A stretch of 48,209 nucleotides of DNA from an uncultured bacterium (GCA_964524195.1 CAZGCC010000001.1:1-48209), one strand, 5' to 3'. Positions 13,620-44,167 are shown, counted from the first letter of the stretch. Made by a program: numbers and translations. The notes: generated by a model from the letters alone, not told the origin.

Positions 13620-13620
13620 A

Positions 13621-16718: not shown

Positions 16719-16819
16719 ATCAGCGGTTCCCGTTTTTGACGCTTCGAGTATAATACCGTCGTTGTCAGGCTGGAGGACGGCCCTTTTTTACATACATCAA
16801 ACAGGAGCAAAAAAATCAA

Positions 16820-23013: not shown

Positions 23014-24786
23014 TCAGGCCGGGAAAAAAACGGAGAATCGCGAGCCTTGACCGGGGGTGCTTTGGCAGGAAGCATGGCCGCCGTGAGCTTCCATGATGTG
23101 CTTGACGATCGCAAGTCCCAATCCCGTGCCTCCGAGTTCCTTCGACCGCGCTTTATCCACACGGAAGAACCGTTCAAAGATCCGCTCCCGGACCTCTTCC
23201 GGGATGCCGGCGCCCGCATCCTCGATCGTGACCGTGACTCCCGAGGGGCTTTGACTCGCCGAAAGAACGATCCTTCCTTCCGGTTTATTGAATTTGATCG
23301 CGTTGTCGATGAGATTCATCAAAACCTGATGGACTTTATCCCTGTCTCCGGAGAGGAGAATAGGTTTTCCGGAGAGGAGATTCTCGACCGTGATCTTTTT
23401 TTCACGGATCTGCGTCTTGAGCTTTTCCAGGATGGTCAATAATTCCGGAGAAAGATCGATCGCTTCCTTCCTTAAGGGCGCAACGCCTTGTTCGATCTCA
23501 CCGAGCGTCAGGATGTCTTCGACCAGGCGGCCCAGACGGTCTGTTTCCTCCGAAATGATCTTGAGGAACCTTTCGCTTGTCGGGGCGTCCTTGAGCGCGC
23601 CGCCCAGGAGGGTTTCGATAAAGCCCTTGATCGAGGTGAGGGGAGTACGAAGTTCGTGGGAGACATTCGCCACGAATTCCTTCCGCATATTCTCGAGCCG
23701 GCGGAGTTCCGTCATGTCATGAAACACCAGGATGCCGCCGATCGACCGGACATGGGCATCGAGAACGATGACATTTGCATGAAGTGTTTTTTTTATGTTT
23801 CCCGAAAGCTGGATCTCGACGGCGGTGGTTTTCTGCTCTTTGAAGGCGCGGTCCACGATCCCCTCAAGCTGGGGATGGCGCGTGATCTCGATCAGGCCTT
23901 TTCCCTGCGCCTCAGGAACCGCGAAGCCAAAGATATTTTCCGCGGCCGGATTTGCCGTCACCAGCTGTTTCCGCCGGTCTATCGCGATCACGCCTTCCTT
24001 CATATGACCTAAAATGACCGAGATCTTGCCTTTTTCGGTCTCGAGATCCTCGATCCTGGAGGCCAGGGAGGAAGCCATTTGGTTCATGGTCTCAGCGAGC
24101 ATCTTGAGCTCATCCTGCCCGTCCATCAGGATCTTTTCAGACCAGTCTTCACGGGCATACCGTTCGGCGATCGAAGTGATGCGGCGAATGCGCTTTGTGA
24201 GACGATCGCTGAAGAAAATCCCGGCACCAAGAACGATCAGGATGCCCAGGAAGGCCGTGAGCATCACGGTCCGTCGGACCGAGTCCAGGATCTCATTGAC
24301 ATGCGTCACCGGCATCGCCGCGCGAACAACTCCGAGAACTTTTCCGCTCTCTGTTATGGGGACCGCGAGATAAAGCATTTTGGCTTTAATGGTCATGCTG
24401 TAACGGAGGCTCATGCCCGTTTCTTTCCTGAGAGCTGCCGCAATTTCGGGGCGGGTCGCGTGATTATCCATTTTTGCGAGAGCTTCGTCAGTTTCACTGG
24501 AGTCGGCAAGGATCATGCCCTCGGGATCGACGACCGTAATGCGCAGGCCGGTTTCTTCCGCGATCTTCCGGATCTCGGACCGGAGCCGGGGGGTATCCCT
24601 CAAGAGAGGGTTTGCGATCTCACGGATCAGGACCGACTGCCGTACAAGAGAGCTCTGAAGCTGCTGAAGGTCCCTTTTCTGGAGGACCGTAGAAAGCGTC
24701 CAGTCCGTCACCAGCAGGACGAGGATAAAGATGACGCCGTAGAGCACGAGGAGCCGCTTGGCAAAACCGATCTTGGAGAAGCTCAT
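23014..24786 (-). CDS. phoR: Sensor histidine kinase, PhoR-like (TM, about 150 aa extracytoplasmic domain, TM, HAMP, PAS, HisKA, HATPase)
   Basis: FVANVSHELRTPLTSIKGF, the DRDKV.QVL.NL..NA pattern, GTGLGLAIVKHI and GQGSRFSVFFP. ATG 24786 lies 1 nt after the regulator's stop, with an alternative ATG at 24798. Confidence 0.75.
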   Translation of the reverse strand: MSFSKIGFAKRLLVLYGVIFILVLLVTDWTLSTVLQKRDLQQLQSSLVRQSVLIREIANPLLRDTPRLRSEIRKIAEETGLRITVVDPEGMILADSSETDEALAKMDNHATRPEIAAALRKETGMSLRYSMTIKAKMLYLAVPITESGKVLGVVRAAMPVTHVNEILDSVRRTVMLTAFLGILIVLGAGIFFSDRLTKRIRRITSIAERYAREDWSEKILMDGQDELKMLAETMNQMASSLASRIEDLETEKGKISVILGHMKEGVIAIDRRKQLVTANPAAENIFGFAVPEAQGKGLIEITRHPQLEGIVDRAFKEQKTTAVEIQLSGNIKKTLHANVIVLDAHVRSIGGILVFHDMTELRRLENMRKEFVANVSHELRTPLTSIKGFIETLLGGALKDAPTSERFLKIISEETDRLGRLVEDILTLGEIEQGVAPLRKEAIDLSPELLTILEKLKTQIREKKITVENLLSGKPILLSGDRDKVHQVLMNLIDNAIKFNKPEGRIVLSASQSPSGVTVTIEDAGAGIPEEVRERIFERFFRVDKARSKELGGTGLGLAIVKHIMEAHGGHASCQSTPGQGSRFSVFFPA

Positions 24787-24787
24787 T

Positions 24788-25477
24788 TCAGGCTCCATCG
24801 AAGCGGTAGCCGACACTTTTAATCGTGACGATCCGCTCCGCTTCTTTTCCGAGTTTTTTCCGCAACTGCCCGACATGCATGTCGACTGTCCGCGTTTCGA
24901 TATTCACGGAATTCTCATAACCCCAAACTTTTGATAAAAGGACTTCGCGGGTCAAGACCCGCTCTTTGGAGCCCATAAGGACGCGCAAAAGCTCGAATTC
25001 TTTCGCCGTGATCTCGACGGATCTTCCTTTAAGGCGCAACTCATGTTTGGTCACATCCAGCTCGATCGTTCCGGACCGCAAAACCTGCTCCGGGGATCTT
25101 TCCTGCGACCGGCGGAGCACGGCTTTGACGCGCGCCACAAGTTCCCGGGGGCTGAAGGGTTTGGTGATGTAATCGTCGGCGCCAAGCTCAAGGCCGACGA
25201 CCCTGTCGGACTCCGTGCCTTTCGCAGTAAGCATGATGATGGGGGTAAGCCGTGTTTTCTCGTTTTGGCGAAGGGTTTTGCAGATCTCAAGGCCATTCAT
25301 TTCCGGGAGCATGAGGTCCAGGACCACCAAAGCGGGTCTTTCCCGCAGGGCGGTTTCAAGCCCGGAGCTGCCTTTTGTGGCCGTAAGGACGCGAAAACCT
25401 TCCTGCTCGAGATTGTATTTTACAAGCTCGAGGATATTTTTTTCATCTTCTACAACAAGGACGGTTTCGCTCGCCAT
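24788..25477 (-). CDS. phoB: OmpR/PhoB-family response regulator
   Basis: VLVVEDEKNI, the DLMLP..NG pattern, P.IMLTAKG.E.DRV.GLELGADDYITKPFS.RELVARVKAVLRR and a winged-helix C-terminus ...TVKSVGYRF. Confidence 0.8.
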   Translation of the reverse strand: MASETVLVVEDEKNILELVKYNLEQEGFRVLTATKGSSGLETALRERPALVVLDLMLPEMNGLEICKTLRQNEKTRLTPIIMLTAKGTESDRVVGLELGADDYITKPFSPRELVARVKAVLRRSQERSPEQVLRSGTIELDVTKHELRLKGRSVEITAKEFELLRVLMGSKERVLTREVLLSKVWGYENSVNIETRTVDMHVGQLRKKLGKEAERIVTIKSVGYRFDGA

Positions 25478-25540: not shown

Positions 25541-25558
25541 TTTACACGCTCTTTACAC
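25541..25558 (+). promoter_or_regulatory. Pho-box-like direct repeat pair (TTTACA-n5-TTTACA) in the phoB / giant-ORF divergent region
   Basis: TTTACAcgctcTTTACA with hexamer starts 11 bp apart. It lies 64-81 bp from the phoB start codon. Confidence 0.5.
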
Positions 25559-25679: not shown

Positions 25680-25733
25680 TTTACATTTCTTTTACTTGTC
25701 CGTCACCGGGATTTCGCCCGGGGAAAGTAATAT
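25680..25733 (+). promoter_or_regulatory. Pho-box-like phased repeats plus a -10-like hexamer upstream of the giant ORF
   Basis: TTTACA (25680), TTTACT (25691) and a degenerate GTCACC (25702), all 11-bp phased. TAATAT at 25728 is 26 nt from the last hexamer start, the same offset as at 37486/37512 and 45190/45216. Confidence 0.5.
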
Positions 25734-25795: not shown

Positions 25796-28700
25796 ATGCG
25801 GATAAAGCCGGGACTTTGCCTTGCGAGGTCTTTTCAAAAGATTTTTTTAAGAGGCGTTGCTCTTGCGACGCTGAAGTGTTTCGTTGTCACCAGCCTTGCT
25901 CTGGGGATTTCTCCTGAAGCGATCGCCGCAAGCTGGAGTAGTCCGCTTGCTCTCGTAAGCTCCTTGCCCTTTTCCGGGATCCCAAAAGAAATGGGAAAAC
26001 TTGACGGTGTTTTTGCGCCCCCGGTTGCAAACCGGTCCGTTTTCTTTTTGCACATCAAAGACGCCCATGCCTCGATGGAGGCCCAGAGGAATATCAACCG
26101 GATCCTTACAAGGTTGCAGCAAAGAAAGCAACTAGACCTTGTTTTAATAGAAGGCGCCGCGGGACCTCTCACCCCAGGTCGTTTGGATGTGTTTGATGAC
26201 GCGAAAAGGAATGACGCGTACAAGAAAGATCTCTTAAGTGCGGGCTTGTTAAACGGCGCAGCCTATTTTGCCGCTGGCCAAAAAAATGGCCTGGCTCATG
26301 GGTTGGAAGATTCCGCAGCGTATTTTGAGAATCTCAAAATCTTTCGCCAGATCGCCGCCTCGCGCGTTCTTAACGAGAAATTTTTTAACGCGATCGAAGT
26401 CGCGCTTTTCAACAGATCAAAGAACATTCTTAAGATGGAAGTGTTCGCGTTTCTTAAGGAGTGGAAGAGGCATCATCAAAATACATTATCCTGGGATCGG
26501 TACCTTTCGTTCCTGATCCGGAGTGCCGCGAAGTTCCTGGCTCTCGACCTTCGGGATTACCGCACGCAGGTCTTGTGGCCTCACTTGGTTCGTTATCACC
26601 GACTGGAGATCTTTTCTGAGCAGATCCGTTCCGATGCCGTTCAAAAAGAATACCGGAAGCTTGTCCAACGACTCGAAAAGGTCCGTGAGCCGGCCCTGGA
26701 AGAGACTTTGGCGCTGTTGTCTGCTACGGTGGAAAGCCCGGCAGCCCTTATCCGGGAAACGCCCGATTTTCGAAAATATGTGGAAGTGCTTGTAGAGGCT
26801 TGCTCTCGCGAAAGGATCCTGCTGCAACAGTTTCCGAACCTCGTTCGTTATCTGGCTTTCCGGATCTTTCGCTCCGAGATCGAACCCGAAGAATTGCTTC
26901 TCGAGGTGGGGCGGCTGGAAGATGCCCTTTTCGAAAAACTGTTCAAGGAAGAAAAGTCCCGGAATTTTATAGCGGCCTACCGCGACTTTTTTCTTCTCAA
27001 GCGGGCTTTTGCGCTGGAGCTTGACCGGGCCGAATCCAAACGCTTTGAAATCATGGATGTTTCAAAGAGGGTTCGGCTGCTTTCAAAGATCGCCCCAGGG
27101 CATGATCTGCAAATAGAAAATTTGATCCGCGGGGCGGATCTCGTGAAGCGGTTCTACAAGGCGGCCCAAAAACGCGACGGCGCCTTTGCGGAGCAGCTAA
27201 GAAAAGCCCTGGAAGGAGCGCAGGTTTTCCCGGATAGGCCCTTTTTCATTGTGCTTGTCACCGGGGGATATCATGCCGAGAGTCTCGAAAACTGGCTTCG
27301 TACCGAAAAACTTCCGTTCGCCAGCATTCAGCCGTTGTTTAAAGACGAGCCTAATAAAGAACGGTATGAAAACCTTCTTAGGGGCGATTACAGCGACTTT
27401 GATGCTCTTGCGACTCCGCAGGGCTCTATTCTCCCGGATGCGATCGCCGAAAAACTCATGGGAAAAGAGGCCCTCACAGCGTTTCGTGGAGCCGAGGCGC
27501 GTTTAGCGGCCAGGCAAACCCTTGGATCCGGAACATCCGGGGACCGACCCTTTCGGAGACCAGATGAAAATGTTTCGATCTTGCAGGATTCCGTTCGTTC
27601 TGAATCTGGAAAATCGACCTCCGGGAGAGATTTAACGATCGACAAATTCAAGGAGATCGCTGAAAAATGGCTTCGCCTTTTCAAAATCGAACAGATGTCC
27701 CCGGAGGAAATTCTCTTAGGCGAAAAAGAGCTTTCTGTAAAACTTTCTTTTGCCTCTGGGGCTGAGGGCTCCAATGAGCTCGATGCGTCACACCAGGCGT
27801 TAGAAATGATCCAGGAAGAAGCGGAAGCTTTTTTCTCTGGCTACTACGGACAGATCCACAGCAGTTCTTTGGAGCCCAACAAGGGGACGAAGGACCTCTC
27901 CTGGGTTCAACTCACGCTTCACCGGCGATCCGAGACTAGGGCTCTAGTGAAAGGCCTTGCCCGTTTGCTCATAGCTTTTGCGTTGGCGGGGACGATAAGC
28001 GGCTGTTCAACTTTGAGCCATGAAGCATTAAAAGAACAAATTCGCCAGGCGGAGCAGTATACGCTCCCTCAGAGGACGGTGGCGGTTCCAGCCTCGGTCC
28101 GGGTGAATGAGAAAAATCTTCTCGAAGCAATCCTTCTTAATGACCCCCAAGTCCGCCAGGCCGGGCTGAGGATTGCGATCCGCGAGACCGAAAAAGGGCG
28201 TCTCAAAGGAAGTTTTTCTTTGGAAACGCATTTTTCCTTGGTGGATGGGAAGCCTGTTTTTAGCGGAGGCGTCAGGGGGAGGGCCCCTTATCTTGGAGAA
28301 GTGGGGCTTCTGGGTCTTGGCGCGGGAAGCGTGGCAAGTCTGGCGTTGGAGTTGACGGGAGCGCTCGGTAGTTTTATTTCCGGGGAGCCTCTCTTGGCGA
28401 ACGACCTTGCCCAAAAACTTATCGAAGCGGCCCAGTTGCATCACCAAGATGTTATTGGAGAGCGTTACCTGGAATATGCTCGAATTGCCTTGGAGGTCAA
28501 GACGCTCCAGGATCAGCAGGCTCTGGCTGAGGCGACGGTCGCAGCCCTGAAGCATTCCTTGCAAATATCGCTTCAAAAAAGAGAAAGTTCCGAGCAGGAT
28601 CGCGCTCGGATCGAAACGCTATTGGATGAATGGAAAATGCGCTCCAATGATCTCGGGGCGGCTTTCCGTGAGAAGAGCTCCCGGTTGCTCGATCTTTATA

Positions 28701-31700
28701 TTCCGGAAGCTGCGGGAGAGAGCCGCTGGGGAGTCGATTTCTCCTACGCTGCCATGCCTCGGAACTGGAAAGTGACCCCCGCCATGACTCAAGATCTTGT
28801 AAATCGTGCAACTCAAAGGACAGGATCTCAATTGCCTTTGAATCGCGAATTGGCCGCGGCCTACAAAGCGCGCGAAGCGTCCATTGTAACCATGCTCCTT
28901 TCAAAAGCCCGTGACCGTTTCAGCCTGAGCATCGGAGGCCTTTTCCATGCGGACGATCTGGGAACGCCGCCATCCATGGATGATGACGCGAAAGGGGATT
29001 TCGATACGAATGCGGACAAAATAGTGGACCGGAGGACCGAAGACAAAAATTCGGTAAGAACCGGCTTTCGAAAAACTTTTGGCGGCGAAAGCGCCGCGGA
29101 TGTTCAGATGGCTTCTCATGAAGTTGAGATGAACGACAGTCTTCTTCAGGAGGTGGATCGCCGTGTGAGGCTGGAGATCGCCGAGCTGCTTTCCCGGATC
29201 GAACAAAAAAACAAAGAGATCGGGATCCTGGAACAAGCGGTCAGCAGAGATCGCGCGCTTTTGGAGAAAGCCCGAAAGATCTCTTTTGGCGGACAAACTT
29301 TATATCTTGAGGATCGTTTGTTCCCTCAGATCGACGCGATCGGGAAAAACGGAATCGCGCTTTTAAAGGCGCAGCAGGAACTGACCGTGGCCATTAAGCG
29401 CTTGGAAGTTCTTTCGGGGACCTTAGGCGGATTTTCATGGGGTCAGGCGAAGCGCTCAGAGGTTCGAAGCGCGGCATTTTCTTCTGCCGCGCAGCTGTTA
29501 CTGTTTAAAGGTTTTGAGAGCGCCGCGCTTGCTGTCCGGTCAGCTTCCGATTCTCGCCGGAGCGAATTTAGTCTTGAGCGGGATCTGGATAAAGCCTGGT
29601 CCCATTTGATTAAATTGCGGGCGGGTTTCGAATCAGAATTCTCGGGAGAGAAAGGTGCTCTCCATAGCCAGCATGTTTTCGGAAAGGCGAATGACCGGTT
29701 GCGTTGGGATATCGACAATGGGGTCTGTTTGACGGAAGAAGAACATAGGCGTCTTGCCCACGGAGGCCAGACAGACAGAGCCAAATTCTGGGACTGGGCG
29801 ATCCGGCGCATGTCTCCCGAAACGCTCGAACATTTACGGGACGCAATGTACGAACCGGAAAAGCCGGTTGACAGGAGAATTCTGCTCGCTCAATTCCGAA
29901 AAGAAATAGAAGCTCAAAAAAGACGTCTGAAAGAATCCGGGACTGTTGAGCTGTTGACAAAGGGGGGGCGTTCGGAAATACGAGGAAGTTTTTCGGCCAA
30001 ACAAAACGGTCCAAAGGGATCTTTTCCCTGGCGCTCGATGTTTGTTAAGGCGGTGATCGCGCTTTTCCTGGTGATCGGTTCTTTGCTTCCGTCATCAGCA
30101 TTGGCTGGTCAGGCGGAACCAGCAATGCATGCGACCCGCATGGTTCGGTCGGGGGCGTCAGGTTTTGGCGCGGCAGCGTCGTCGCTGGTTGTCGCCGGAT
30201 CCCAGGAAGCAGGCAAAAATTCCTTTGATGTGTTTGTTGAGGAAACGCTCAGAAAGATCCCGAACGATTCGGACCGGCCGTATTTGAAAGGCTATGCGCA
30301 AGGGCTTCGGGATATTTTGGATATCACCACTCCCGAAGGCCTTGAGCAAGCAAAAAGCAGTTTCGCGGAAAGAGCGGATATCTTTATGCCGGTTCCCCGA
30401 TGGTCTGATCCCGAATTGCTTCAGCAAGTTTCAAGAAGGCTGGAAGGGTTGTTGAGAAAAATCCCAAAAGAAAAAAGACCCGAGGTAATCCGGGAAATAG
30501 AAAATGCGAACATCGGTGATGAAATTCCGGTAACCGTCATAAAAAGCATCCGTCGCCATCACCATAAATCGTCATTTCCTGTTTTTAAAAAAACCGAAGC
30601 GCAAGAATCCATTCGCGTTACCCGAGAGCTTAAGGAAACCGTAGAAACAAGACAAATGATCGAAGACAGGATCAGTTCCCAAAGAGCTCAAATCGTTTCT
30701 GGACGGGCGCCTGCACTATCGGGAAGCGGAGTGGACACCGTTCCCCAGTGGAAGCCCGGCGAAGTTGTCATGCCGCCCACGGAATGGCCTGATTCTCCGG
30801 AAGTCACTGAATTGGACGGAGCGCTGGCTGAGTTTGACGGTTTTGTCATGCAGCTTCTTTACAAGATCCCCGATGCCGCCCGAAGAACGCAGCTTGTTCA
30901 GTATGCGGAAGGCCTGAAAGCCATGATCGTAAATCCGTCTTCTCTGGAACACGCCAAAATGCAGTTTTCCAAAAAAGTCGCACTCGACGGTATTTCAGAA
31001 GGCCTGGGGGCGATCGCCGCGGGCGGTCCTCTGGCGGCAGGAGCGGCGCTCGTGGAGGCTCCGGTTGTGGCTGCCCCTGAACAAATAATAATACAGCCAA
31101 CCATCTCCGGAGCGGAAACGGTTCCTCCAGCAAATATTTCTCCCGTGATGGCCATTCTTTTGCCGGAAGGTCGTTCCGGAGCTCAAGCGGAAAGTTCCAG
31201 TACCGCCCTTGAGATCTTAAGAGATTTTGCGGATGCTGCGCCTCCAGCGGCGGCGAAGTCCCAAGAAACCTTGGCGGACGATGAGGCCATGCTTCCGGAG
31301 GCATCCGAAGAAATATCAGTTTCTCTGGAGCCCCCAAGCATTCCAGGGCCTGCGCCCGTGATAGATAGCGCAGTTTCCAGGACTCAAAAAATTTCCGAGC
31401 CTGAACGGACCTCGACTCAAACAGGGCCCGTTCTTCCCGCCGTTTCCCATGGGCCGCAAGGTGTGATTTATGAATCAGAACGACCAGCCAAGTCCACGCC
31501 GGTTTTTTGGGATATGCAAGCGCCTTTCCCCGGAAAAACTCAGCATCTGGTGCGGGAAGGCGATGTGGTGAGACCAGGAGATGTTCAGGCGGAAATACAA
31601 GATCCTGAGCAGCGGCATGAAATACAAGGCTTAAAGGCGGCGATCGCAGGTATTGACCGGCAAATCCAAGGAAAAGGCAGTGTTCTGGGGCTGGATGAAA

Positions 31701-34700
31701 ATATTCGCTTGCGGTTTGAACGGGAAGAATTGGCCCGCAGACTTCGGCAGCTTGAGTATCAAGAAAGCCTGAGCGTCATTAAAGCTGGCCGGCCCGGAAG
31801 GATCGTGGAAATTCGCCGCGGCGATATTAATGCGGGAGGGATGGTGGTTCGTGCCGTTGCTTTGGATGCCGGCGAAGTGAGCTATTGGGTGCCGCGGGAG
31901 TATAGCGATTTTGATTATCCCGAATTAGGCTTAACAAACGGAACACCGCTTCGGGTTGTCGGCTATCGCATCGATGATATTGACCTCAATAGCAGCCAGA
32001 TACTTTTGACAGTCGCGTTTGTCGGCAAGGACGAAATACCAGCGGATGCTCGATACAAACTGACGCTGGTTAAAAACCCCTCTCAAGTTACTGCCCAATC
32101 CGAAGAGGCATCAGGCCATTTCTTTCATGCCCGAGTTCCTTCGAGGGAAACGGCAGCCATTTCCGTTGAAAAAGCCGACAATATCCCAGGAGCTCGTGCT
32201 CGGCCATCGGTTCCTGAAGGCAGTTTTGTTTCGGCGGGCCAGGGGGTAGGTATGGCGGATGCTCTGGATTACCTGCAATCTCAAAGGGATCCGGCGAAGA
32301 AGTTGGTAGGCCATGCTGACGAATTGGCACGGGTAAACCAACAGGAAATCCAGCTGCTTCCTGACGATGAAGTGCGTCAAATCCAGAAGGATGCGAGACT
32401 TCAATTAGCGGATCTTGAAGGTACCAGCCCCCAGCTTATTTTAAAAGCGCCTATTTCAGGCATCGCAACAGGTCTTTCGGACCTTGAGGGCGAGGTCGTC
32501 ATTCCAGGTAAAGTTACACGGGCTAAAGTCACCAGTACCAGGGTTTTTCTGGGAAGCGAGAGAGCTTATGAAGGAAATCTTGAGCTTAATGACGACTATT
32601 TGATCTCAGTGCCTCAGGAAAGCGTTCGAGAGGGAGATCCGGTTCTTGTTTCAACGCCCGCAAGGCGTCCGCTCGTGGGGAAAGTAATTAAAATCGTCCC
32701 GCTTGCAAACCGCAGCGTATGGCTTAAGGGACAAGAAGCGCTGATAATCGAGGTCAATGACCCAGAAATGTATTTGGGAGACAGAATGCCGGTGCGGCTG
32801 GATTTTGATCCACAAGTCATCGCGGCGGCCAAGGATGCAGCAGCAAATCCTGACGGGAATGCCCCCGTTTTAGCCGACTTTAAGGATGATTTGCCGGCGC
32901 CTGCGGCTTATGCGGTCCTTCAGAGCCCCGAAGACGAATTAAGTCTCGGGAAAATATGGCGTTTGACCCGCCACGAGGGGAACAGCCTTCAGAAGGTCGG
33001 CATGTGGAGATATTTCTTGGGGACAGCGGTCGGTTGGGCATTCCTTGGTAAGCTTGTCTGGGCGGGTTCGGGGAAGATCCTGATCTCGCTGGCGGCGGGC
33101 CTGGCGGCCTTGACGCTTTGGAACACCTTTTCGAATCTGTGGAGGCGGTTTTTCCCCAAAGAGATCGAAGATGAATCCAAGGATCTCGGCTCTGATATCC
33201 GGCGTCTTGCGCGAAGCCTGGAGATGGACAGTGCCAGCCTTTTCGGGAAAGAGGAAGAGGCCGAAGAGATCCTCCACGATATCATAGCGGCTTTGCATAG
33301 CTGGAATCAGCTCCTGCAGGAAGAGAGCCTTACTTCTGCCGACCTTTCAACGATGATGACGAAAGCCCAAGAGCTGGCCGGTAACAAGCGGCTCATGTAT
33401 TCCAAGAAACATTCCCAGAACATGGGCTATTTTAAGGAGGATGCCGCCGATGATTTCGTCCGGATCCATGAGATCATCGCCCGTTTAGCCATTTTGAGCG
33501 CCGCCAAAGCCTCGTTCGAGCTTAAGGTCAGGCCTTCCCGCGGTGCCGGGCTTGTCGAGGAAGAGAAGCTCCTGGATTTTCAGGAAAAAATGGAATATTT
33601 TGCCGAAGGACTCAATAATGCGTCCCAGGTCGGTTATAAGCTGTCGGCGATCGCGAATCCCACAGATCATTATCCTCCCAAAGTGATGCGGAACGGAAGG
33701 GCTCTGACCCTTTCCCATTTGTTCCAATGGATCCATAACCGATGGATTTTTTATACCTTCCCGGCGCTTCGGTTCCTGAATTTCTACGCCGTGGCGGTAT
33801 TCTTTCACAAAGGCGGGCGGCATGTACCGTTCCTCTGGGGAGCGGCGGATTACTATCATCACTATTACAATGCCATGAAAAAAGCGGGTGTCGATCTCGC
33901 CTCCACACCTTCGGATTTTGAGAAAGGATTCAAGGATGCTTTTTATAAAGAGGTGGATATTGAACACTGGCTACCCAGCAAAAAGCTGCATTATTATGGG
34001 CGCTATTACGCCTTGGTAGGATGGGTCATTTTTGCGATCCTGCCATGGTTTTTATCCCCGCTTCTCCTGTATCTTTCCGGGGTCGGGCTCATCGTGGGAA
34101 CGAGCATTCTCATGATCTGGAAAACGGTGCCGCTGTTTTACACATTTTTCCGTTACATGCTGCCTGTTGTAATGGGAAGCGAAAGCAAACACTACCGATC
34201 TAACCTGAAAGATATTGTCCGTCTTCGGCGCGAACGCTTGCGAAAACAGGCGGGTCTGTTGAGCGGGAAAAAGGAATCGCCCTTGCCGCCCCGGGGTTTA
34301 CCGTCTTCGGCTTCTGCATCTCAGGTTACAGAACCCGGCACCATTGCTTTGAAGGCCATGCAGCAAGCTTTGCTTCAGGCCGCAGAAAATGCCGAAGTGG
34401 AGATCATTGCGGTCCTGCCTCCCCGGAATGGAAACAATGACCGGGATATAGATCTTTTTGAGAAAAGGGTCCGTCACGATGAGGCATTAGCGCGCTTGGG
34501 GATTCGCACGGTCGAAAGCGATGGGAAGATTGCCGGGGAGGCGGGGCTCTTCTTCGCGGCCCGGTCCATCTCGGATGAGAATAAACCTTATAAGATCTAC
34601 TGGTATCCCAAGGGTTTTCCGAGCGAAGGGGTTCGTCTTGCTTCTGCGTTAGCGGTATTCAAATTTAATTTAGCAGAAGCTTTGCGTATGATCGATGCTT

Positions 34701-36976
34701 ACCGGAAACTCGGAGATTCCTTTGCGACGGTTGTTTTTCCGGGAGGGGAAATGGATACCAGCGTTACGGAAGCCACTGAAAATGGCAGCAATTTTGTGGT
34801 TCGAAGTCGTTACGAAAGTTTAAAAGAGATCCGCTCCAGGAACCTTCCCGTTCTTTTGGGGCATAACGGGACCACTCGCTTGAGAGTGGATCAGGTGATC
34901 TATAGCCCCGACGAACTGAAGGGGGCGATTAGCAAGGCAGATATTTCCATGGGAGCCCGGCGGTTTGATCTTTCAAATGATGAATTGAAGCAGATCCCGG
35001 TGCGGTCTGGTCCTCTCGCGATCGTGGCCAAAGACAGGGAAACTCAGGAAAAGATCGAGCAAGTCCTGGAGGTCTTTCAGCGGGGTACCGAAGAGCTTTC
35101 GGCGCGGTATGCCCCTTTTATGACCGATCTTTTGCAGGATGTTTTCAGTCCGGTGGCTGAATTTTTCCGTCAGTTCAATCCTGCGTCTCCCGAAACCCCA
35201 AGTATGAACCACCTGACCCAGCGGACGCTAGGGATGCCGGACGGCCGGATCGTCAATCCCTGGAACAAGTTGCACGGTAAGATCGCAACGCGGCTCCTGA
35301 CACTTTCGGCATCCGGCCGCAAAGCGCCTCTTCATGTCGAGGCGTTTATTCCGCCGTTCGTCGATTCCTTCCATCTTGAAAGTTCGAATTATGAAGGTAT
35401 TCTCAGCCAGCTTGTAAATCTTCACAAAGACTTTCCGGAACTGGTCGACCCGGTGATTTTAGAACGCCTTAAAGAAAGCCGTAAACGCGCCGCTTCGAAA
35501 ATTCCAGAAATCCTGATCTTTGAGGACGATTCAGGAAAAAAGGTTTACGCCACCAAAGAGGAAGGATACCGTCGGAAATTACGGGCTCTCGAGGTGGCGG
35601 GACTTGTTACCAAGGACGGCAAATTGGTTTTGCAGCGGCGGAGCAATCAGTCGGCAACAAATCCCGGGCGCTTGGATGTTTCATTTGCGGGACATCGTCA
35701 GCAGCAGGATGTTTCTTCGGAAGCGGCCGCCAAGCGGGAATTTTTAGAAGAGCTTTTGGCTGGCAGTCCGCTTTCCGTTCCTCTGAAGTTCGAAAAACTG
35801 AAAGATCATCGCTACGAGATCCCTCATGAGACACCGGGGAAAGGGCTGTTTCGCCGCAAGCATTCCGAGATCTTTCAGGTCCGTCTGGACGGTGAGTTCC
35901 AGTGGGGCGATTTCAAGCCGGCAGATAATGCCGTCGAAGTGGTTCCCATCGATCCTGGCGAGATCCCGCAGCTTTTAGCCGAGAAATCCGGCCAGTTCAC
36001 CCCACGCGCTTTTTCGCTACTTAAGGAAGTTTATCAGCAGCCGGATCTTGGTTTGGCGGGAATCCCTGCTAATCCTTCTTCTGTTCCTCCGCGCTCCGAA
36101 GTGAGAAACCCCAAAGAGGAAATCGGCCCGACAGAGGAGCTCTCTGATCTTGAAGAAATGAAAATCTTCCTACCCGAGACATCCGAAGCGATCCGTGTTC
36201 TGACGGCTATCCTTGTTGCTGAAAGGATCCTTGCCATTCGCGATGTTGGCTTTCTTTCCAGGCTGGAAGCTTCGCTCGAAGATACCGGCGCGATCTCTGA
36301 ACGCGTTGCGCCTGCTCTTGCGGCGCTATCCGGCGCCCATGATGTTTCATCAGAAACATTAAAAACGCGATTGGAGTTGCTGCTTCGCCAGAAACAAAGC
36401 CAAACCGCTACGGATGAGCGCATTGTTTTTCTGGATGCCGGGACAGTCCCTGCGGAATATTTCAAGAAGCTTTTGAGGTCTCAAGTTCCCGTAGTGGTCT
36501 TGTTCGATCGTCACCACCAAGCGCTTTATGAGCAGGCCGCCAAAGAACAATTGCGTGCCCAGGCGGGGAGCCATGTCATTTTAGTTTATACGCCGGATGG
36601 GGTGAGCTCTTTTGTCAAACGGGCGCTCCAGTCAGGCGATGCGCTTCTTACCGCTTCTCCGCGTCTGAACGCTGTTTTGACCCGCTTTCGAAGTCACGGG
36701 AAGGCGGATGACATTGCCCTTATCACGAGAGGGCGCGCTGAAAGCCAGAAGGTCGAATCCGATTATGTTGGCCACCGCTATTATTACGATGACGAAACAC
36801 TTCGGCTTGACCCGGAATTGATCTTTTACTCCTTGCAGCTTCTCCTGCGCAGCCCGGAGCTTTTCCGTTACGGGAAGGGACGGAATGCTCAGGATGCGGT
36901 CTCCCTGATAGGGCTGGTGCTCCAGCAGCTTGCAGCTTCCTTGAGAGGGGAGCAGGCAGCCAAAGTCGCAGCGTAA
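25796..36976 (+). CDS. Giant multi-module envelope protein (about 3,726 aa), function unknown
   Basis: One uninterrupted frame. ATG 25796 is preceded by AGGGTGAGGG, and GTG 25787 is an alternative start. It contains recognisable OMF-like, MFP-like, polytopic-membrane and Nudix-like segments (see the sub-features and findings). Confidence 0.85.
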   Translation: MRIKPGLCLARSFQKIFLRGVALATLKCFVVTSLALGISPEAIAASWSSPLALVSSLPFSGIPKEMGKLDGVFAPPVANRSVFFLHIKDAHASMEAQRNINRILTRLQQRKQLDLVLIEGAAGPLTPGRLDVFDDAKRNDAYKKDLLSAGLLNGAAYFAAGQKNGLAHGLEDSAAYFENLKIFRQIAASRVLNEKFFNAIEVALFNRSKNILKMEVFAFLKEWKRHHQNTLSWDRYLSFLIRSAAKFLALDLRDYRTQVLWPHLVRYHRLEIFSEQIRSDAVQKEYRKLVQRLEKVREPALEETLALLSATVESPAALIRETPDFRKYVEVLVEACSRERILLQQFPNLVRYLAFRIFRSEIEPEELLLEVGRLEDALFEKLFKEEKSRNFIAAYRDFFLLKRAFALELDRAESKRFEIMDVSKRVRLLSKIAPGHDLQIENLIRGADLVKRFYKAAQKRDGAFAEQLRKALEGAQVFPDRPFFIVLVTGGYHAESLENWLRTEKLPFASIQPLFKDEPNKERYENLLRGDYSDFDALATPQGSILPDAIAEKLMGKEALTAFRGAEARLAARQTLGSGTSGDRPFRRPDENVSILQDSVRSESGKSTSGRDLTIDKFKEIAEKWLRLFKIEQMSPEEILLGEKELSVKLSFASGAEGSNELDASHQALEMIQEEAEAFFSGYYGQIHSSSLEPNKGTKDLSWVQLTLHRRSETRALVKGLARLLIAFALAGTISGCSTLSHEALKEQIRQAEQYTLPQRTVAVPASVRVNEKNLLEAILLNDPQVRQAGLRIAIRETEKGRLKGSFSLETHFSLVDGKPVFSGGVRGRAPYLGEVGLLGLGAGSVASLALELTGALGSFISGEPLLANDLAQKLIEAAQLHHQDVIGERYLEYARIALEVKTLQDQQALAEATVAALKHSLQISLQKRESSEQDRARIETLLDEWKMRSNDLGAAFREKSSRLLDLYIPEAAGESRWGVDFSYAAMPRNWKVTPAMTQDLVNRATQRTGSQLPLNRELAAAYKAREASIVTMLLSKARDRFSLSIGGLFHADDLGTPPSMDDDAKGDFDTNADKIVDRRTEDKNSVRTGFRKTFGGESAADVQMASHEVEMNDSLLQEVDRRVRLEIAELLSRIEQKNKEIGILEQAVSRDRALLEKARKISFGGQTLYLEDRLFPQIDAIGKNGIALLKAQQELTVAIKRLEVLSGTLGGFSWGQAKRSEVRSAAFSSAAQLLLFKGFESAALAVRSASDSRRSEFSLERDLDKAWSHLIKLRAGFESEFSGEKGALHSQHVFGKANDRLRWDIDNGVCLTEEEHRRLAHGGQTDRAKFWDWAIRRMSPETLEHLRDAMYEPEKPVDRRILLAQFRKEIEAQKRRLKESGTVELLTKGGRSEIRGSFSAKQNGPKGSFPWRSMFVKAVIALFLVIGSLLPSSALAGQAEPAMHATRMVRSGASGFGAAASSLVVAGSQEAGKNSFDVFVEETLRKIPNDSDRPYLKGYAQGLRDILDITTPEGLEQAKSSFAERADIFMPVPRWSDPELLQQVSRRLEGLLRKIPKEKRPEVIREIENANIGDEIPVTVIKSIRRHHHKSSFPVFKKTEAQESIRVTRELKETVETRQMIEDRISSQRAQIVSGRAPALSGSGVDTVPQWKPGEVVMPPTEWPDSPEVTELDGALAEFDGFVMQLLYKIPDAARRTQLVQYAEGLKAMIVNPSSLEHAKMQFSKKVALDGISEGLGAIAAGGPLAAGAALVEAPVVAAPEQIIIQPTISGAETVPPANISPVMAILLPEGRSGAQAESSSTALEILRDFADAAPPAAAKSQETLADDEAMLPEASEEISVSLEPPSIPGPAPVIDSAVSRTQKISEPERTSTQTGPVLPAVSHGPQGVIYESERPAKSTPVFWDMQAPFPGKTQHLVREGDVVRPGDVQAEIQDPEQRHEIQGLKAAIAGIDRQIQGKGSVLGLDENIRLRFEREELARRLRQLEYQESLSVIKAGRPGRIVEIRRGDINAGGMVVRAVALDAGEVSYWVPREYSDFDYPELGLTNGTPLRVVGYRIDDIDLNSSQILLTVAFVGKDEIPADARYKLTLVKNPSQVTAQSEEASGHFFHARVPSRETAAISVEKADNIPGARARPSVPEGSFVSAGQGVGMADALDYLQSQRDPAKKLVGHADELARVNQQEIQLLPDDEVRQIQKDARLQLADLEGTSPQLILKAPISGIATGLSDLEGEVVIPGKVTRAKVTSTRVFLGSERAYEGNLELNDDYLISVPQESVREGDPVLVSTPARRPLVGKVIKIVPLANRSVWLKGQEALIIEVNDPEMYLGDRMPVRLDFDPQVIAAAKDAAANPDGNAPVLADFKDDLPAPAAYAVLQSPEDELSLGKIWRLTRHEGNSLQKVGMWRYFLGTAVGWAFLGKLVWAGSGKILISLAAGLAALTLWNTFSNLWRRFFPKEIEDESKDLGSDIRRLARSLEMDSASLFGKEEEAEEILHDIIAALHSWNQLLQEESLTSADLSTMMTKAQELAGNKRLMYSKKHSQNMGYFKEDAADDFVRIHEIIARLAILSAAKASFELKVRPSRGAGLVEEEKLLDFQEKMEYFAEGLNNASQVGYKLSAIANPTDHYPPKVMRNGRALTLSHLFQWIHNRWIFYTFPALRFLNFYAVAVFFHKGGRHVPFLWGAADYYHHYYNAMKKAGVDLASTPSDFEKGFKDAFYKEVDIEHWLPSKKLHYYGRYYALVGWVIFAILPWFLSPLLLYLSGVGLIVGTSILMIWKTVPLFYTFFRYMLPVVMGSESKHYRSNLKDIVRLRRERLRKQAGLLSGKKESPLPPRGLPSSASASQVTEPGTIALKAMQQALLQAAENAEVEIIAVLPPRNGNNDRDIDLFEKRVRHDEALARLGIRTVESDGKIAGEAGLFFAARSISDENKPYKIYWYPKGFPSEGVRLASALAVFKFNLAEALRMIDAYRKLGDSFATVVFPGGEMDTSVTEATENGSNFVVRSRYESLKEIRSRNLPVLLGHNGTTRLRVDQVIYSPDELKGAISKADISMGARRFDLSNDELKQIPVRSGPLAIVAKDRETQEKIEQVLEVFQRGTEELSARYAPFMTDLLQDVFSPVAEFFRQFNPASPETPSMNHLTQRTLGMPDGRIVNPWNKLHGKIATRLLTLSASGRKAPLHVEAFIPPFVDSFHLESSNYEGILSQLVNLHKDFPELVDPVILERLKESRKRAASKIPEILIFEDDSGKKVYATKEEGYRRKLRALEVAGLVTKDGKLVLQRRSNQSATNPGRLDVSFAGHRQQQDVSSEAAAKREFLEELLAGSPLSVPLKFEKLKDHRYEIPHETPGKGLFRRKHSEIFQVRLDGEFQWGDFKPADNAVEVVPIDPGEIPQLLAEKSGQFTPRAFSLLKEVYQQPDLGLAGIPANPSSVPPRSEVRNPKEEIGPTEELSDLEEMKIFLPETSEAIRVLTAILVAERILAIRDVGFLSRLEASLEDTGAISERVAPALAALSGAHDVSSETLKTRLELLLRQKQSQTATDERIVFLDAGTVPAEYFKKLLRSQVPVVVLFDRHHQALYEQAAKEQLRAQAGSHVILVYTPDGVSSFVKRALQSGDALLTASPRLNAVLTRFRSHGKADDIALITRGRAESQKVESDYVGHRYYYDDETLRLDPELIFYSLQLLLRSPELFRYGKGRNAQDAVSLIGLVLQQLAASLRGEQAAKVAA
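27941..29430 (+). other. Internal module: lipoprotein-type signal (lipobox LAGTISG-C, Cys codon 28004-28006) plus a TolC/NodT-like outer-membrane-factor region
   Basis: ALVKGLARLLIAFALAGTISGCS. About 475 aa follow, with two OMF-like half repeats (LLEAILLNDPQVRQAGLRIA...GSFSLETHFSL and NRELAAAYKAREAS...RFSLSIGGLF) and long helical stretches ending in ...AIKRLEVLSG. Confidence 0.55.
31500..32815 (+). other. Internal module: two tandem HlyD/membrane-fusion-protein-like units
   Basis: Unit 1: HLVREGDVVRPGDVQAEIQD, then coiled coil, then VIKAGRPGRIVEI..GD...GG.VV. Unit 2: VPEGSFVSAGQGVG, then coiled coil, then ILKAPISGIATG, VREGDPVLVS and GDRMPVRLDF. Confidence 0.55.
33002..34180 (+). other. Internal module: polytopic membrane block (about 6 hydrophobic helices) with Tyr/His-rich loops
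   Basis: WRYFLGTAVGWAFLGKLVWAGSGKILISLAAGLAALTLW, IFYTFPALRFLNFYAVAVFF and YYALVGWVIFAILPWFLSPLLLYLSGVGLIVGTSILMIWKTVPLFYTFFRYMLPVVMG. The loops carry ADYYHHYYN and LHYYGRYY. Confidence 0.6.
35590..35985 (+). other. Internal module: degenerate Nudix-fold domain
   Basis: VAGLVTKDGKLVLQRRSNQSATNPGRLDVSFAGHRQQQDVSSEAAAKREFLEELL follows the pattern KDGK.LLQ.RS..K...PG..D.S.GGH...GE....AA.RE..EE.G. The REFLEE core is kept, while the Gx5E spacing and the final Gly are altered. Confidence 0.5.
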
Positions 36977-37474: not shown

Positions 37475-37517
37475 TTTACAAATGCTTTACATGAGACCCC
37501 TCCGCAGGCGTTATAAT
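37475..37517 (+). promoter_or_regulatory. Pho-box-like repeat pair plus a consensus -10 upstream of the ROK-ppx-ppk1 operon
   Basis: TTTACAaatgcTTTACA with hexamer starts at 37475 and 37486. TATAAT at 37512 is 26 nt from the second hexamer start. No -35 match. Confidence 0.6.
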
Positions 37518-37547
37518 AAAAGCGTTATCTTGGAGAGCGGAGGGTTT

Positions 37548-38534
37548 ATGGCGAATAAAAAGAAGAAGTATATTTTGGGGATCGATCTAGGCGGGACCAA
37601 GGTTCTGATCGGGTTGCTCGATAAGAAGTTCAGGATCAGGAAAAGGGTCAAGCTGGAAATGGATGGCAACCGCGGGGAAAGGTTTTTCTTCAACAATCTT
37701 CTTGAGGGGATCGAGGAAGTGCTGGAGGAGACAGGGACCGGACTTAATAATATCTCCATGGCCGGCATCGGTTGTCCCGGCATTATCGATATCTACCGGG
37801 GGGTGGTTAAGGTTTCTTCCAATGTCTCTTTTTTCAAGAATTATCCTCTGGTTAAAAAGCTGAAAGCAAAATTAGGCATCCCTGTCTTTCTTGAAAACGA
37901 CGCGAATGCGGCGCTTTATGGCGAGCAGCAGTTCGGAGCCGCGCGAGGTTTCCGGCAGGTTGTGGGGGTTTTTCTTGGGACCGGGGTCGGAGGATCTCTC
38001 ATCCTGAACGGGCATCTTTACAGGGGCATCTCCGGAGGCGCTGGAGAGATCGGGCAAATGCTGGTGTCGATGCCGTCTTTTTCAAATTTCGAAGTTTCGC
38101 GCCAAAAAGTAGGCGCGCTTATAGGACGCAATGCCATCGCCTCCGAAGCCGGTTTTCTTTTGCTCAGGCAGAAATGCCCGCATCTCCTCGAAGAGATTGG
38201 ATACAATGTCAAAAAGATCCGCAGCGGAGCTCTCTCTCGCGCGATCAAGGCCGGCGATACTGCTCTCGAAAATCTGATTCGGAGCCGCGCCCGGTGGCTG
38301 GGGATCGCGCTGGCGAATGTAGTGAATGTCCTGAATCCGGAGCTGGTCGTTCTGGGGGGCGGGATGATGGAAGCCATGGGGAAGATCATTCTTCCTGAGG
38401 TTCGAAACACCATGGAGCTTTACACTCTGAAGCCGCTCATGCGCGATGTCCGGGTTGCAGCGTCCGCTCTTAAAGACGATGCGGTGATCATGGGCGCGGC
38501 AAAGCTGGTTTATGACCTTGCAAAGAGGTCTTGA
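37548..38534 (+). CDS. ROK-family sugar kinase (glucokinase-like) lacking the ROK zinc motif
   Basis: ILGIDLGGTKV, GIGCPG, ENDANAAL.GE and GGAGEIGQ. GGAGAGCGGAGGG Shine-Dalgarno before ATG 37548. Confidence 0.8.
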   Translation: MANKKKKYILGIDLGGTKVLIGLLDKKFRIRKRVKLEMDGNRGERFFFNNLLEGIEEVLEETGTGLNNISMAGIGCPGIIDIYRGVVKVSSNVSFFKNYPLVKKLKAKLGIPVFLENDANAALYGEQQFGAARGFRQVVGVFLGTGVGGSLILNGHLYRGISGGAGEIGQMLVSMPSFSNFEVSRQKVGALIGRNAIASEAGFLLLRQKCPHLLEEIGYNVKKIRSGALSRAIKAGDTALENLIRSRARWLGIALANVVNVLNPELVVLGGGMMEAMGKIILPEVRNTMELYTLKPLMRDVRVAASALKDDAVIMGAAKLVYDLAKRS

Positions 38535-38536
38535 AA

Positions 38537-40111: not shown

Positions 40112-40117
40112 GCGACC

Positions 40118-42181: not shown

Positions 42182-42717
42182 AAAGGATCATCGCCTCCGG
42201 ACTGACCGTGTTCTTTTTTTGTTCTCTGGCGTTCGCGGGCCCGGCATTGGACCAAGATGCAAAGCTGAAGAGCGCGGAAAAACCGCTAAAGGCCGATTTG
42301 ACGCTTGTCGCTTCTCCGATCTGGGCCAGAAGCATTAAAGCGGGCGGCACGGTCAACGCGCTTGAAAAGCCCGCGGACGAAATGCCGCCCGTGTGGACTT
42401 CCGTTCTTTTCCGTGTCGAAAAAGTCCTGTCGGGAGAGTTCAAGATTCCCAAGAGCCAGGAGATCTCTTTATGGAGCCAGATGAAAGACGCCGCGGAGGA
42501 CAAGAACCTCCTCAAGCTTCTGACCATGGATTTTGAAAAACCCGCAGAGGACGGCGACGACAAAGAATGGCTTTCGATCGCGGTGATCGATCCCTACGCT
42601 TCATTCGGCGTCCGTGAAGGGGAGCCCCCCGCCTCTCGCCAACGCTACAAACTTTCTCTCGCCCAAGTCCATAAAGATCCCGACAGTTTTATTCTCGTGA
42701 AAAGCGAAAAGCTTTAA
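42178..42717 (+). CDS. Hypothetical secreted protein, translationally coupled to ppk1
   Basis: ATGA overlap with the ppk1 stop. GGGAG Shine-Dalgarno. Signal peptide ...SLAFA|GP. No family recognised. Confidence 0.6.
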   Translation: MKRIIASGLTVFFFCSLAFAGPALDQDAKLKSAEKPLKADLTLVASPIWARSIKAGGTVNALEKPADEMPPVWTSVLFRVEKVLSGEFKIPKSQEISLWSQMKDAAEDKNLLKLLTMDFEKPAEDGDDKEWLSIAVIDPYASFGVREGEPPASRQRYKLSLAQVHKDPDSFILVKSEKL

Positions 42718-42823
42718 AAGAACCATCAACAAAAACTTTGGCTCATCCCGGAAGATTTGATTTCTCGAGGCGCAAAGATTACAATCAACCGTCAAAGAGT
42801 CGTGGCATAACACCAACCCAAGG

Positions 42824-43384: not shown

Positions 43385-43519
43385 AGCCCGGCCGCATTTT
43401 TTCGCGCGCCATTAATTTAGCCTTGTCGCGTGTTCTCTGCGCAATTGCCTCCTGCCCTGCAATCGATTACAATCCTGCCATGTTCTCTAAACAGATCCTT
43501 CTGCCGATCCGGAGGTTTA

Positions 43520-44074: not shown

Positions 44075-44167
44075 AGCCCCAAGCTATCCCTGGCATCTCG
44101 CAAAGCGAGCTCAGGTCTGGGTTCTTTTTTTGGGGAAACGCAAGCATGATGCGGTGGGAGGGTTATT

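Follow-up and report, generated by a model that had tools for sequence, protein, structure and literature searches.

Giant genes are a known trait of Candidatus Omnitrophota, where they include the 'Archaeovorins' and others (10.1101/2023.11.21.568195, 10.64898/2026.06.07.730766). West-Roberts et al. hypothesised in 2023 that the giant proteins are cleaved into several products and stated that the cleavage points were unknown (10.1101/2023.11.21.568195). In a 2026 preprint, internal signal-peptide calls in the giants were discarded as artefacts (10.64898/2026.06.07.730766). Here we analyse a smaller gene of this kind on a 48,209-nt stretch of DNA from an uncultured bacterium (GCA_964524195.1 CAZGCC010000001.1:1-48209; hereafter the window), in which a single open reading frame (ORF) at 25796..36976 on the plus strand encodes 3,726 aa followed by a stop codon. 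This gene and its orthologues resemble the published giants in belonging to the same phylum, in their multi-domain composition, and in having both membrane segments and enzymes of cytoplasmic type, NUDIX and HATPase_c among them; the gene in the window differs from them in being ten to forty times shorter and in lacking C39 and S8 peptidase domains. Term searches of the two papers (10.1101/2023.11.21.568195 and 10.64898/2026.06.07.730766) found neither efflux, TolC, or HlyD nor a description of the motif reported below; outer-membrane-factor (OMF) and membrane-fusion-protein (MFP) modules appear to be previously unreported in Omnitrophota giants. Literature searches on the motif strings, on bacterial polyproteins, on Omnitrophota together with polyprotein, and on internal signal peptides also gave no precedent. 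Tripartite envelope systems and long Omnitrophota genes are already known, and the new element is a short separator motif, R-S-E-x-R, at the module boundaries. Judged from sequence comparison, the giant gene may encode a PhoB-controlled polyprotein that is cut at these marks, a reading to which we give a probability of roughly 0.55.

The translation contains R-S-E-[T/V/I]-R exactly four times (aa 711, 1220, 1392, and 3433), and these positions are the four junctions that had been named in a first-pass annotation of the window, generated by a model from the sequence alone. The separators lie at 27926..27940 (R-S-E-T-R, aa 711-715), 29453..29467 (R-S-E-V-R, aa 1220-1224), 29969..29983 (R-S-E-I-R, aa 1392-1396), and 36092..36106 (R-S-E-V-R, aa 3433-3437); these and all other features of the giant gene are on the plus strand. 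In a shuffle test, 0.02 copies of RSE[VIT]R were expected and none of 20,000 shuffles reached the four copies seen; for the broader pattern RSE[VILMTAF]R, the expectation was 0.063 against the same four. The orthologues P0007, P0018, and P0019 contain seven, four, and three copies, respectively, where approximately 0.04-0.06 are expected in each. All orthologues carry the motif at the corresponding boundaries, and the residue in its fourth position is V, I, L, M, T, A, or F. The motif is also concentrated in long frames: in approximately 200 kb of Omnitrophota DNA, frames of at least 1,000 aa hold 29 copies per 29,063 aa, and frames of 100-999 aa hold three copies per approximately 99,000 aa, two of which are in fragments of the giant family.

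The codons of the motif were compared over the 27 instances for which DNA was available (window, L002, and L004-L010). Five codons are used for the first Arg, four for Ser, two for Glu, and six for the final Arg. Because the codons drift, selection appears to act on the peptide, and the junctions must be translated. An explanation at the level of DNA, or as a Shine-Dalgarno sequence, was rejected because the codons differ between copies. The Ser is always encoded by TCN (27/27) and never by AGY, and both Arg residues switch freely between CGN and AGR; the restriction of Ser may reflect shared ancestry together with strong purifying selection. The motif is an island of identity in linkers that vary in sequence and by 0 to approximately 70 residues in length. 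Among 34 non-redundant instances, the residue that follows the motif is G, N, A, or S in 24, and the residue that precedes it is Gly in 12, so that the flanks resemble a specific endoprotease site with Arg at P1. Two decayed separators that have lost the final Arg, RSESG (aa 601-605, 27596-27610) and RSEFS (aa 1255-1259, 29558-29572), border a small acidic segment of 105 aa (27596..27925 together with RSESG) and a 30-aa peptide, and P0007 carries intact motifs at about these positions (RSEMR at aa 593, and a further copy at aa 1140). Short conserved sites between modules are a mark of polyproteins, and R-S-E-x-R at the module boundaries is such a site. We propose the motif as the first candidate cleavage signal for Omnitrophota giant proteins.

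The frame that carries the motif is continuous. It starts at GTG 25787 or ATG 25796 and its stop codon ends at 36976, with 3,726 aa counted from the ATG; the second-longest ORF in the window encodes an aconitase of 898 aa. The description of one uninterrupted frame of about 3,726 codons among genes of 50-900 codons is thus correct. The GC content is even along the ORF (0.50-0.55). The orthologues P0007 (5,080 aa), P0018 (3,753 aa), P0019 (3,526 aa), L008 and L009 (each at least 3,526 aa), and L010 (3,249 aa) are all single-frame. They share only 30-62% identity with the window protein and keep the same junctions in frame in independent assemblies. Continuous-frame orthologues occur in at least 10 independent Candidatus Omnitrophota assemblies from different studies. 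Because they keep the frame over all junctions, the giant ORF is regarded as biological and not as an assembly error.

The initial relatives were found via modules 1 and 5, the terminal modules of the chain, and the full-length orthologues P0007, P0018, and P0019 were found by cluster look-ups. When species-representative genomes were scanned with the core of module 5, seven loci were obtained, six of which are titled Candidatus Omnitrophota or Omnitrophica metagenome-assembled genomes (MAGs) and the seventh only 'uncultured bacterium'. One family member, P0009 (GenBank MFA5026920.1), is labelled Candidatus Methylomirabilota; given the titles of the six loci, this label is probably a MAG binning error. 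A word-indexed search of 5.8 billion proteins gave no relatives of aa 711-1391. HMMER, run with aa 1392-2590 over all 1.84 billion cluster representatives, gave four proteins only, all of them fragments of giant proteins. Single-protein scans of genome and metagenome contigs gave no relatives, and the patterns employed in them were too specific.

The separators delimit five modules. Module 1 (aa 1-600, 25796..27595) has an N-terminal signal-like segment and a periplasm-directed domain, module 2 (aa 737-1219, 28004..29452) is predicted to be an OMF with the TolC/NodT fold, module 3 (29468..29968) is a variable cassette, module 4 contains the adaptor units and the membrane domain, and module 5 (aa 3438-3726, 36107..36973) is terminal, has no signal peptide, and ends in -AA. 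The chain comprises an outer-membrane channel, two adaptor units, and a membrane domain, without a recognisable energised transporter. The first-pass annotation had described an in-frame concatenation of a complete envelope-spanning apparatus. The concatenation of normally separate parts stands, as the OMF, MFP, and NUDIX calls hold, and 'complete' was an overstatement: the membrane domain has no match to ABC, RND, or MFS transporters, and an energising module was not found. A hydrophobicity profile places the hydrophobic and signal-like segments where they had been predicted, namely at aa 20-38, aa 716-734, and aa 1419-1437, with approximately 5-6 further helices in aa 2407-2789. The second segment, which begins after separator 1 at nt 27941, ends in the lipobox I-S-G-C737, and the third, for which a start had been placed at nt 30038 (Met1415), ends in A-L-A before G.

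Module 2 starts with a lipoprotein signal peptide, ALVKGLARLLIAFALAGTISG-C737 (27941..28006), which was read from the translation and the hydrophobicity profile and is a trait of the NodT subclass. The orthologues have the lipoboxes L-V-S-G-C or L-L-S-G-C ahead of the OMF. When excised, the module scores 23.0 bits with Pfam OEP (PF02321) against a cut-off of 22, with only one of the two expected repeats detected; the whole giant protein scores 19.3 bits, under the cut-off. OEP is matched by four of the five members of the module 2 family (best E = 4e-6). With the AlphaFold model of the module, the top 43 Foldseek matches are all OMFs (E to 5e-10), aligned over approximately 480 columns with TM scores of 0.5-0.6, and the next match has an E of at least 0.16. 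A profile search of PDB sequences with module 2 matched no OMF. The prediction of a lipoprotein signal followed by a TolC/NodT-type module is therefore upheld by the lipobox, the OEP score, and the structural matches. We accept that module 2 has the TolC/OMF fold, with the caveats on model confidence and on hhalign that are given below.

Module 4 begins with a Sec-type signal peptide, GSFSAKQNGPKGSFPWRSMFVKAVIALFLVIGSLLPSSALA followed by GQ (29984..30106), with a hydrophobicity peak of 2.2-2.5 and an A-x-A site read from the translation. Two 'KIP' repeats of approximately 53 aa follow (aa 1477-1529 and aa 1680-1730, 30224..30985). In BLASTP they share 40% identity over 53 aa (E = 2e-10), in agreement with the two repeats that had been reported, and an Ala/Pro/Ser-rich linker extends after them to approximately aa 1880. 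The segment aa 1900-2337 forms two tandem MFP units (aa 1900-2092 and aa 2109-2337, 31493..32806), as had been proposed. The family profile matches the solved structures of HlyD (2e-4), MexA (8e-4), and MacA, and Biotin_lipoyl_2 is found in four of the five family members and HlyD_3 in two of the five; the window protein scores 15 bits with HlyD_3, under the cut-off of 22.2. In an AlphaFold2 model of the region (pLDDT 76), the adaptor pattern is seen twice, and each unit is modeled as a lipoyl-like beta domain split by a helical hairpin and followed by a beta-rich domain. The top 50 Foldseek matches to this model are all MFPs of the MexA/AcrA/MacA type (E to 5e-10). The HMMER scan of the 1.84 billion representatives gave no ordinary MFP at E <= 0.001.

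The membrane domain (aa 2407-2789, 33014..34162) has approximately 5-6 hydrophobic helices, in line with the six or so counted before, and a large soluble loop. Its family profile has no match in Pfam or PDB and no ABC, RND, or MFS transporter match, and Pfam and NCBIfam scans detected no nucleotide-binding domain in the chain. It is followed by a conserved, predicted cytoplasmic region to which no fold was assigned (aa 2822-3266, 34259..35593), with 35-40% identity to the orthologues and many invariant residues. When this region and the adjoining NUDIX-fold domain (aa 3267-3386, 35594..35953) were searched as one alignment, the Pfam and PDB matches covered the NUDIX part only. Pfam NUDIX (PF00293) is matched by all four members at 27.1-30.2 bits (cut-off 21.1), and PDB Nudix hydrolases match at E = 0.002. 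The Nudix box of the window protein reads G-HRQQQ-D-VSSEAAAK-REFLEE-LL, compared with the canonical GX5EX7REUXEEXGU; it retains the R-E-U-x-E-E core (R-E-F-L-E-E), with spacing that deviates by one position and no final Gly. An unassigned segment with a degenerate Nudix fold, as the first-pass annotation put it, is an apt description. In P0007, an intact separator (RSEMR, aa 4064) stands shortly ahead of the equivalent of aa 2822-3266.

What follows each separator fits the destination of the module. The OMF is preceded by the lipoprotein signal in the window, by a twin-arginine translocation (Tat) signal with a lipobox in P0008/P0018, L001, and L010, and by a twin-arginine signal ending in A-S-A in P0007; the Tat signals of the relatives include RRRFL, GRRVFLL, and GRRRFIVL. 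The signal ahead of the adaptor module is of the Sec type and ends in A-x-A. The cytoplasmic modules (the GHKL ATPase and the Nudix region of P0007, and module 5 in every case) have no signal after the motif. Where a signal is present, its core lies 3 to approximately 45 residues from the motif, and a cut after the motif would give signal peptides of normal length (approximately 21 to 41 residues). Tat signals require a free N-terminus and a protein that is folded in the cytoplasm. In an uncut chain, the OMF would be trapped on the cytoplasmic side between the hydrophobic segments at aa 716-734 and aa 1419-1437. The trapped OMF and the need of Tat signals for a free N-terminus therefore suggest that cutting would take place in the cytoplasm before export.

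The modules act like cassettes with separators at their borders. In P0007, a complete HATPase_c module is flanked by two motifs. P0019 shows, at aa 3028-3218, RSEVR, another copy of the Nudix module, a decayed separator (HSEAR), and then module 5; by sequence, the Nudix module is duplicated together with its separator. A second giant gene, upstream of phoR in L002 (L002:1-7107, plus strand; at least 2,368 aa), consists otherwise of unrelated repeat-rich modules. It carries RSEMR directly followed by a Tat signal (NIGRRGFLAG) at aa 1295, and RSEAR at aa 2048 followed by a C-terminal module that resembles module 5. The alignment with module 5 is weak (E = 0.001) and runs from the motif onward, and module 5 is the only module common to the two giant genes. 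A metagenome scan with the terminal module of this second gene gave no relatives.

We infer the cleavage, the position of the cut, its compartment, the stoichiometry, and the control by PhoB as follows. The giant gene would be the equivalent of an operon in the form of one protein; PhoB would probably activate it when phosphate is limiting, and a single chain would be translated. In the cytoplasm, a putative endoprotease would cut this chain at each R-S-E-(aliphatic)-R or directly behind it, and the likely cut is after the second Arg and before the small residue. Each released piece would gain its own N-terminus and take its own route. Module 1 would exit by its N-terminal signal. Module 2 would expose its lipoprotein signal, which is of the Tat type in several relatives, be lipidated, and become a TolC-like channel in the outer membrane. 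Module 4 would expose its Sec signal and place the two adaptor units in the periplasm, anchored via its own membrane domain, with the domain of unassigned fold and the Nudix domain forming its cytoplasmic part, and module 5 would remain in the cytoplasm. Modules 2 and 4 would be made at 1:1, and three chains would provide three channel subunits, six adaptor units, and three membrane domains.

Several observations weigh against this proposal. All of the evidence for cleavage is comparative, and no cleavage product has been observed. Pfam and NCBIfam scans detected no peptidase family in the chain, and the window contains no candidate protease beyond a housekeeping M17 aminopeptidase; module 1, which is weakly Tiki-like, is periplasm-directed, and module 5 shows no catalytic triad. 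In the window there is no intact motif between the membrane domain and the cytoplasmic region, and the motifs at aa 601 and 1255 are decayed. Because some boundaries have no intact motif, processing may be incomplete or may vary. Export of the chain, initiated by the signal of module 1, could also be under way before cutting at the downstream sites. 'Pump' can be used by analogy only, since the membrane domain belongs to no known transporter family. The AlphaFold2 model of module 2 has low confidence (mean pLDDT 53.6) and lacks the second beta region, although its elements come in the order expected of an OMF, and hhalign of the module 2 family alignment against CusC, MdtP, and TolC of E. coli gave a probability of 0.2%.

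The first-pass annotation had left two possibilities, processing into parts or a tethered trans-envelope architecture, and the separators with the signals that follow them favor the former. An uncleaved multi-pass giant that forms a tethered trans-envelope machine is unlikely in our view. Under this explanation R-S-E-x-R would be a linker motif that serves another purpose, which could be the docking of a chaperone or targeting factor, phosphorylation, or a pause that helps the next signal to engage the translocon. No protease was found, hydrophobic segments alternate with soluble domains along the chain, and Omnitrophota giants are regarded in the literature as single polypeptides anchored in the membrane, all of which speak for an intact chain. 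However, without a cut, neither the lipobox nor the OMF would be on the correct side of the inner membrane, the Tat-type signals after the motif in the relatives require a free N-terminus, the motif is also present ahead of cytoplasmic modules, for which no targeting is needed, and module 5 can be a separate gene. Processing might alternatively be left to signal peptidases I and II, with R-S-E-x-R as a conserved part of the n-region or linker. The FbcH cytochrome b/c1 precursor of Bradyrhizobium is processed by an ordinary signal peptidase, and the giant chain offers a canonical lipobox (aa 716-737) and an A-x-A site (aa 1397-1437). We nevertheless consider this improbable, because module 1 is itself exported and the next signal would be wrongly oriented for signal peptidase II, because separators also precede modules without a signal (module 5, the GHKL ATPase, and the Nudix region), and because the spacing between motif and signal core is variable.

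The gene could also be a cryptic operon in which the modules are translated mainly from internal starts and the full-length product is a by-product. The signal core is indeed often closely preceded by a start codon (GTG, V718, in the window; Met in P0007, P0008, and L001), but none of the four window junctions has an in-frame start with a Shine-Dalgarno-like sequence, and junction 2 has no start codon within 30 codons. Without stop codons, ribosomes from upstream would read through anyway, and the conservation of the motif at the peptide level would be left unexplained; we rate this explanation as quite improbable. Finally, there is only a very slight chance that the long frame is an artefact of mis-assembly, a lost stop codon, or a pseudogene fusion. 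Frame breaks are present in some relatives (L001 at approximately nt 5093, P0001 at aa 840, and L003). They lie within domains or in a contig of 1.4x coverage and look like sequencing errors, whereas the 10 or more independent assemblies hold the frame at every junction and the linker indels between orthologues are invariably in frame. Reassignment of a stop codon was rejected, as it would shorten and not lengthen ORFs called under table 11. We retain cleavage at the separators as the preferred reading.

In module 1, the signal-like segment at aa 20-38 is followed by A-I-A-A and S. An alignment with the homologues (P0001-P0006) shows the family-invariant residues H86, D89, H91, E95, E119, R460, and T-G-G-x-H493, whose His, Asp, Glu, and Arg may correspond to the paired His motifs and conserved Glu and Arg of the Tiki/TraB/ChaN/erythromycin-esterase superfamily. 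Pfam ChaN (PF04187) is matched by three of the six family members, which are distant stand-alone homologues (best E = 0.0019), and TraB (PF01963) by two of the six (E = 0.15); module 1 of the window and P0007 match neither, and the module 1 profile has no meaningful match in PDB. The earlier call of a ChaN/Tiki-like domain is thus weak, with a transitive link through distant homologues and no match for the copy in the window itself. By sequence, module 1 is possibly a hydrolase of the Tiki/TraB/ChaN superfamily. The stand-alone homologue P0003 (1,140 aa; L014 8001-11423) has a C-terminal extension with an HExxH-type motif, H-E-I-F-H, and no efflux genes are found in its neighbourhood. P0005, a further homologue, is a fusion with cytoplasmic helix-turn-helix domains. 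Several architectures thus seem to employ the module 1 fold as a periplasmic domain.

Module 3, the soluble segment of approximately 170 aa in the first-pass annotation, consists of the 30-aa peptide, the decayed RSEFS, and a soluble part of approximately 130 aa, and has no homologue outside the giant-gene family. Its position is occupied by a multi-pass membrane protein in P0008/P0018 and by the GHKL ATPase in P0007. The C-terminal module of about 290 aa without a recognised family, as it had been described, corresponds to module 5, for which there is no match in Pfam, no credible match in PDB, and no recognisable fold or catalytic triad; a PDB match to cytochrome c555 was judged spurious. 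Homologues of module 5 are P0012-P0016. In P0015 it is called as a separate 321-aa gene 135 nt after a giant gene; this is a protein-level call, and a frameshift is possible. All of the terminal modules end in -AA or -AV (for example ...AAKVAA at 36956-36973 in the window), as seen in the window, P0007, P0009, P0011-P0016, P0018, P0019, and the upstream gene of L002. These C-termini resemble an ssrA-type C-terminal degradation tag.

The giant gene lies between phoBR and a polyphosphate cluster, as had been stated and as Pfam annotation of the neighbours confirms. A phoR-like sensor kinase (23014-24876, minus strand; HisKA, HATPase_c, HAMP, and PAS) and a phoB-like response regulator (24788-25477, minus strand; Response_reg and Trans_reg_C) precede it. 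In the intergenic region between phoB and the giant gene, there are two Pho-box-like direct-repeat pairs on the plus strand, TTTACACGCTCTTTAC (25541-25556) and TTTACATTTCTTTTAC (25680-25695). A third pair, TTTACAAATGCTTTAC (37475-37490, plus strand), is at the start of the ROK-Ppx-PPK1 genes and overlaps the ATG of the ROK gene. The pattern TTTAC-N6-TTTAC, with its 11-bp periodicity, is seen three times in the window where 0.05 are expected, and none of 100 shuffles reached three; the Pho-box-like repeats of the first-pass annotation are thus well above chance. The pattern is over-represented approximately 60-fold and confined to intergenic regions by phoB, the giant gene, ROK-Ppx, and the porin. 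L001 (3920) and L002 carry it in the same position between phoB and the giant gene, and in L008 (10989), L009 (11100), and L010 (11084) it is just downstream of the giant gene, equivalent to 37475-37490. The copies in L002 are at 9806, 25861, and 30207, one of which is upstream of a porin. TTTAC-N6-TTTAC is a candidate Pho box of this lineage and fits a control of the PhoB type.

The giant gene is set in ordinary chromosomal DNA. Upstream of phoR/phoB, the window contains genes for an M17 aminopeptidase, RsmB, SpoU, MutY, the tricarboxylic acid (TCA) cycle, a DUF4139 protein, and an aldehyde dehydrogenase. The TCA-cycle genes form a contiguous block (11549-17977) of isocitrate dehydrogenase, malate dehydrogenase, aconitase, and citrate synthase. 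Downstream of the giant gene, the order is ROK, Ppx/GppA, PPK1, a TPR protein, PPK2, and a porin. The polyphosphate cluster (37482-45025) includes a ROK-family kinase, which is possibly a polyphosphate glucokinase, Ppx/GppA, PPK1, and PPK2; the porin (45294-46703) is next, and the ORF after it (46893-47843) may encode a phosphate-binding protein. The synteny is shared by the relatives, with phoR-phoB upstream in L001 and L002, and ROK-Ppx or TPR-porin-pstSCA downstream. No tRNA genes are found in the window.

If the giant gene does encode a polyprotein, it would represent a new bacterial route to an envelope machine, in which one translation product supplies parts in fixed proportions to three compartments. 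We know of no comparable bacterial envelope machine made from one translation product. The link with phoBR, polyphosphate genes, and a porin suggests an unrecognised function in phosphate starvation in a widespread uncultured phylum. For the question of whether the Omnitrophota giants act as one chain or are cut up, this locus is a small and tractable case with a defined candidate cut mark. We suggest only tentatively that R-S-E-(aliphatic)-R is a general cleavage grammar of the Omnitrophota giant genes, which are reported to reach approximately 147,000 aa. Under such a phylum-wide grammar, the giants would be operon-like polyproteins from which a dedicated protease releases ordinary-sized proteins with their own targeting signals, and the terminal module 5 would be a processing or quality-control factor. 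This would explain why cytoplasmic enzymes look 'extracellular' in topology predictions of the giants, and the giants could be split computationally into functional units, for example for structure prediction.

Three kinds of known polyprotein or precursor can be compared with the giant chain. MARTX toxins are likewise bacterial chains of several thousand residues whose modules are released at short sites between them. They contain their own cysteine protease domain, which cuts after Leu, and their modules are effectors delivered into host cells. In contrast, Pfam and NCBIfam scans showed neither this protease domain nor RTX repeats in the giant chain, and its modules would be parts of one machine for different compartments. 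FbcH of Bradyrhizobium japonicum is likewise one precursor that gives two subunits of a membrane complex and has an internal signal peptide. It has one junction, which is cut by the ordinary signal peptidase, no dedicated separator motif, and both products are in the same membrane. The viral polyproteins of picornaviruses and flaviviruses also have one ORF, short sites, and a small residue after the cut, as well as internal signal sequences, and their products are made in equal amounts. The giant gene differs from them in being a cellular chromosomal gene with no recognised protease encoded in the chain. To our knowledge, a dedicated separator together with parts of a single machine destined for three compartments is seen in none of these analogues.

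The closest functional counterparts are the tripartite efflux and type I secretion systems, which consist of TolC/OprM/NodT proteins, adaptors such as AcrA, MexA, MacA, or HlyD, and an inner-membrane transporter. The predicted parts of the giant chain, a lipoprotein with the OMF fold and units with the MFP fold, are the same. The components of tripartite systems are separate, whereas those of the giant gene are all in one ORF, as in its 10 or more orthologues. The MFP units are fused in tandem and also to the membrane domain, which is not of the ABC, RND, or MFS type and has no recognised energising module beside it, and the cytoplasmic Nudix domain and the domains without an assigned family are additional. 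The ratio of channel, adaptor, and membrane parts implied for three giant chains, 3:6:3, would equal the classical stoichiometry of the tripartite systems.

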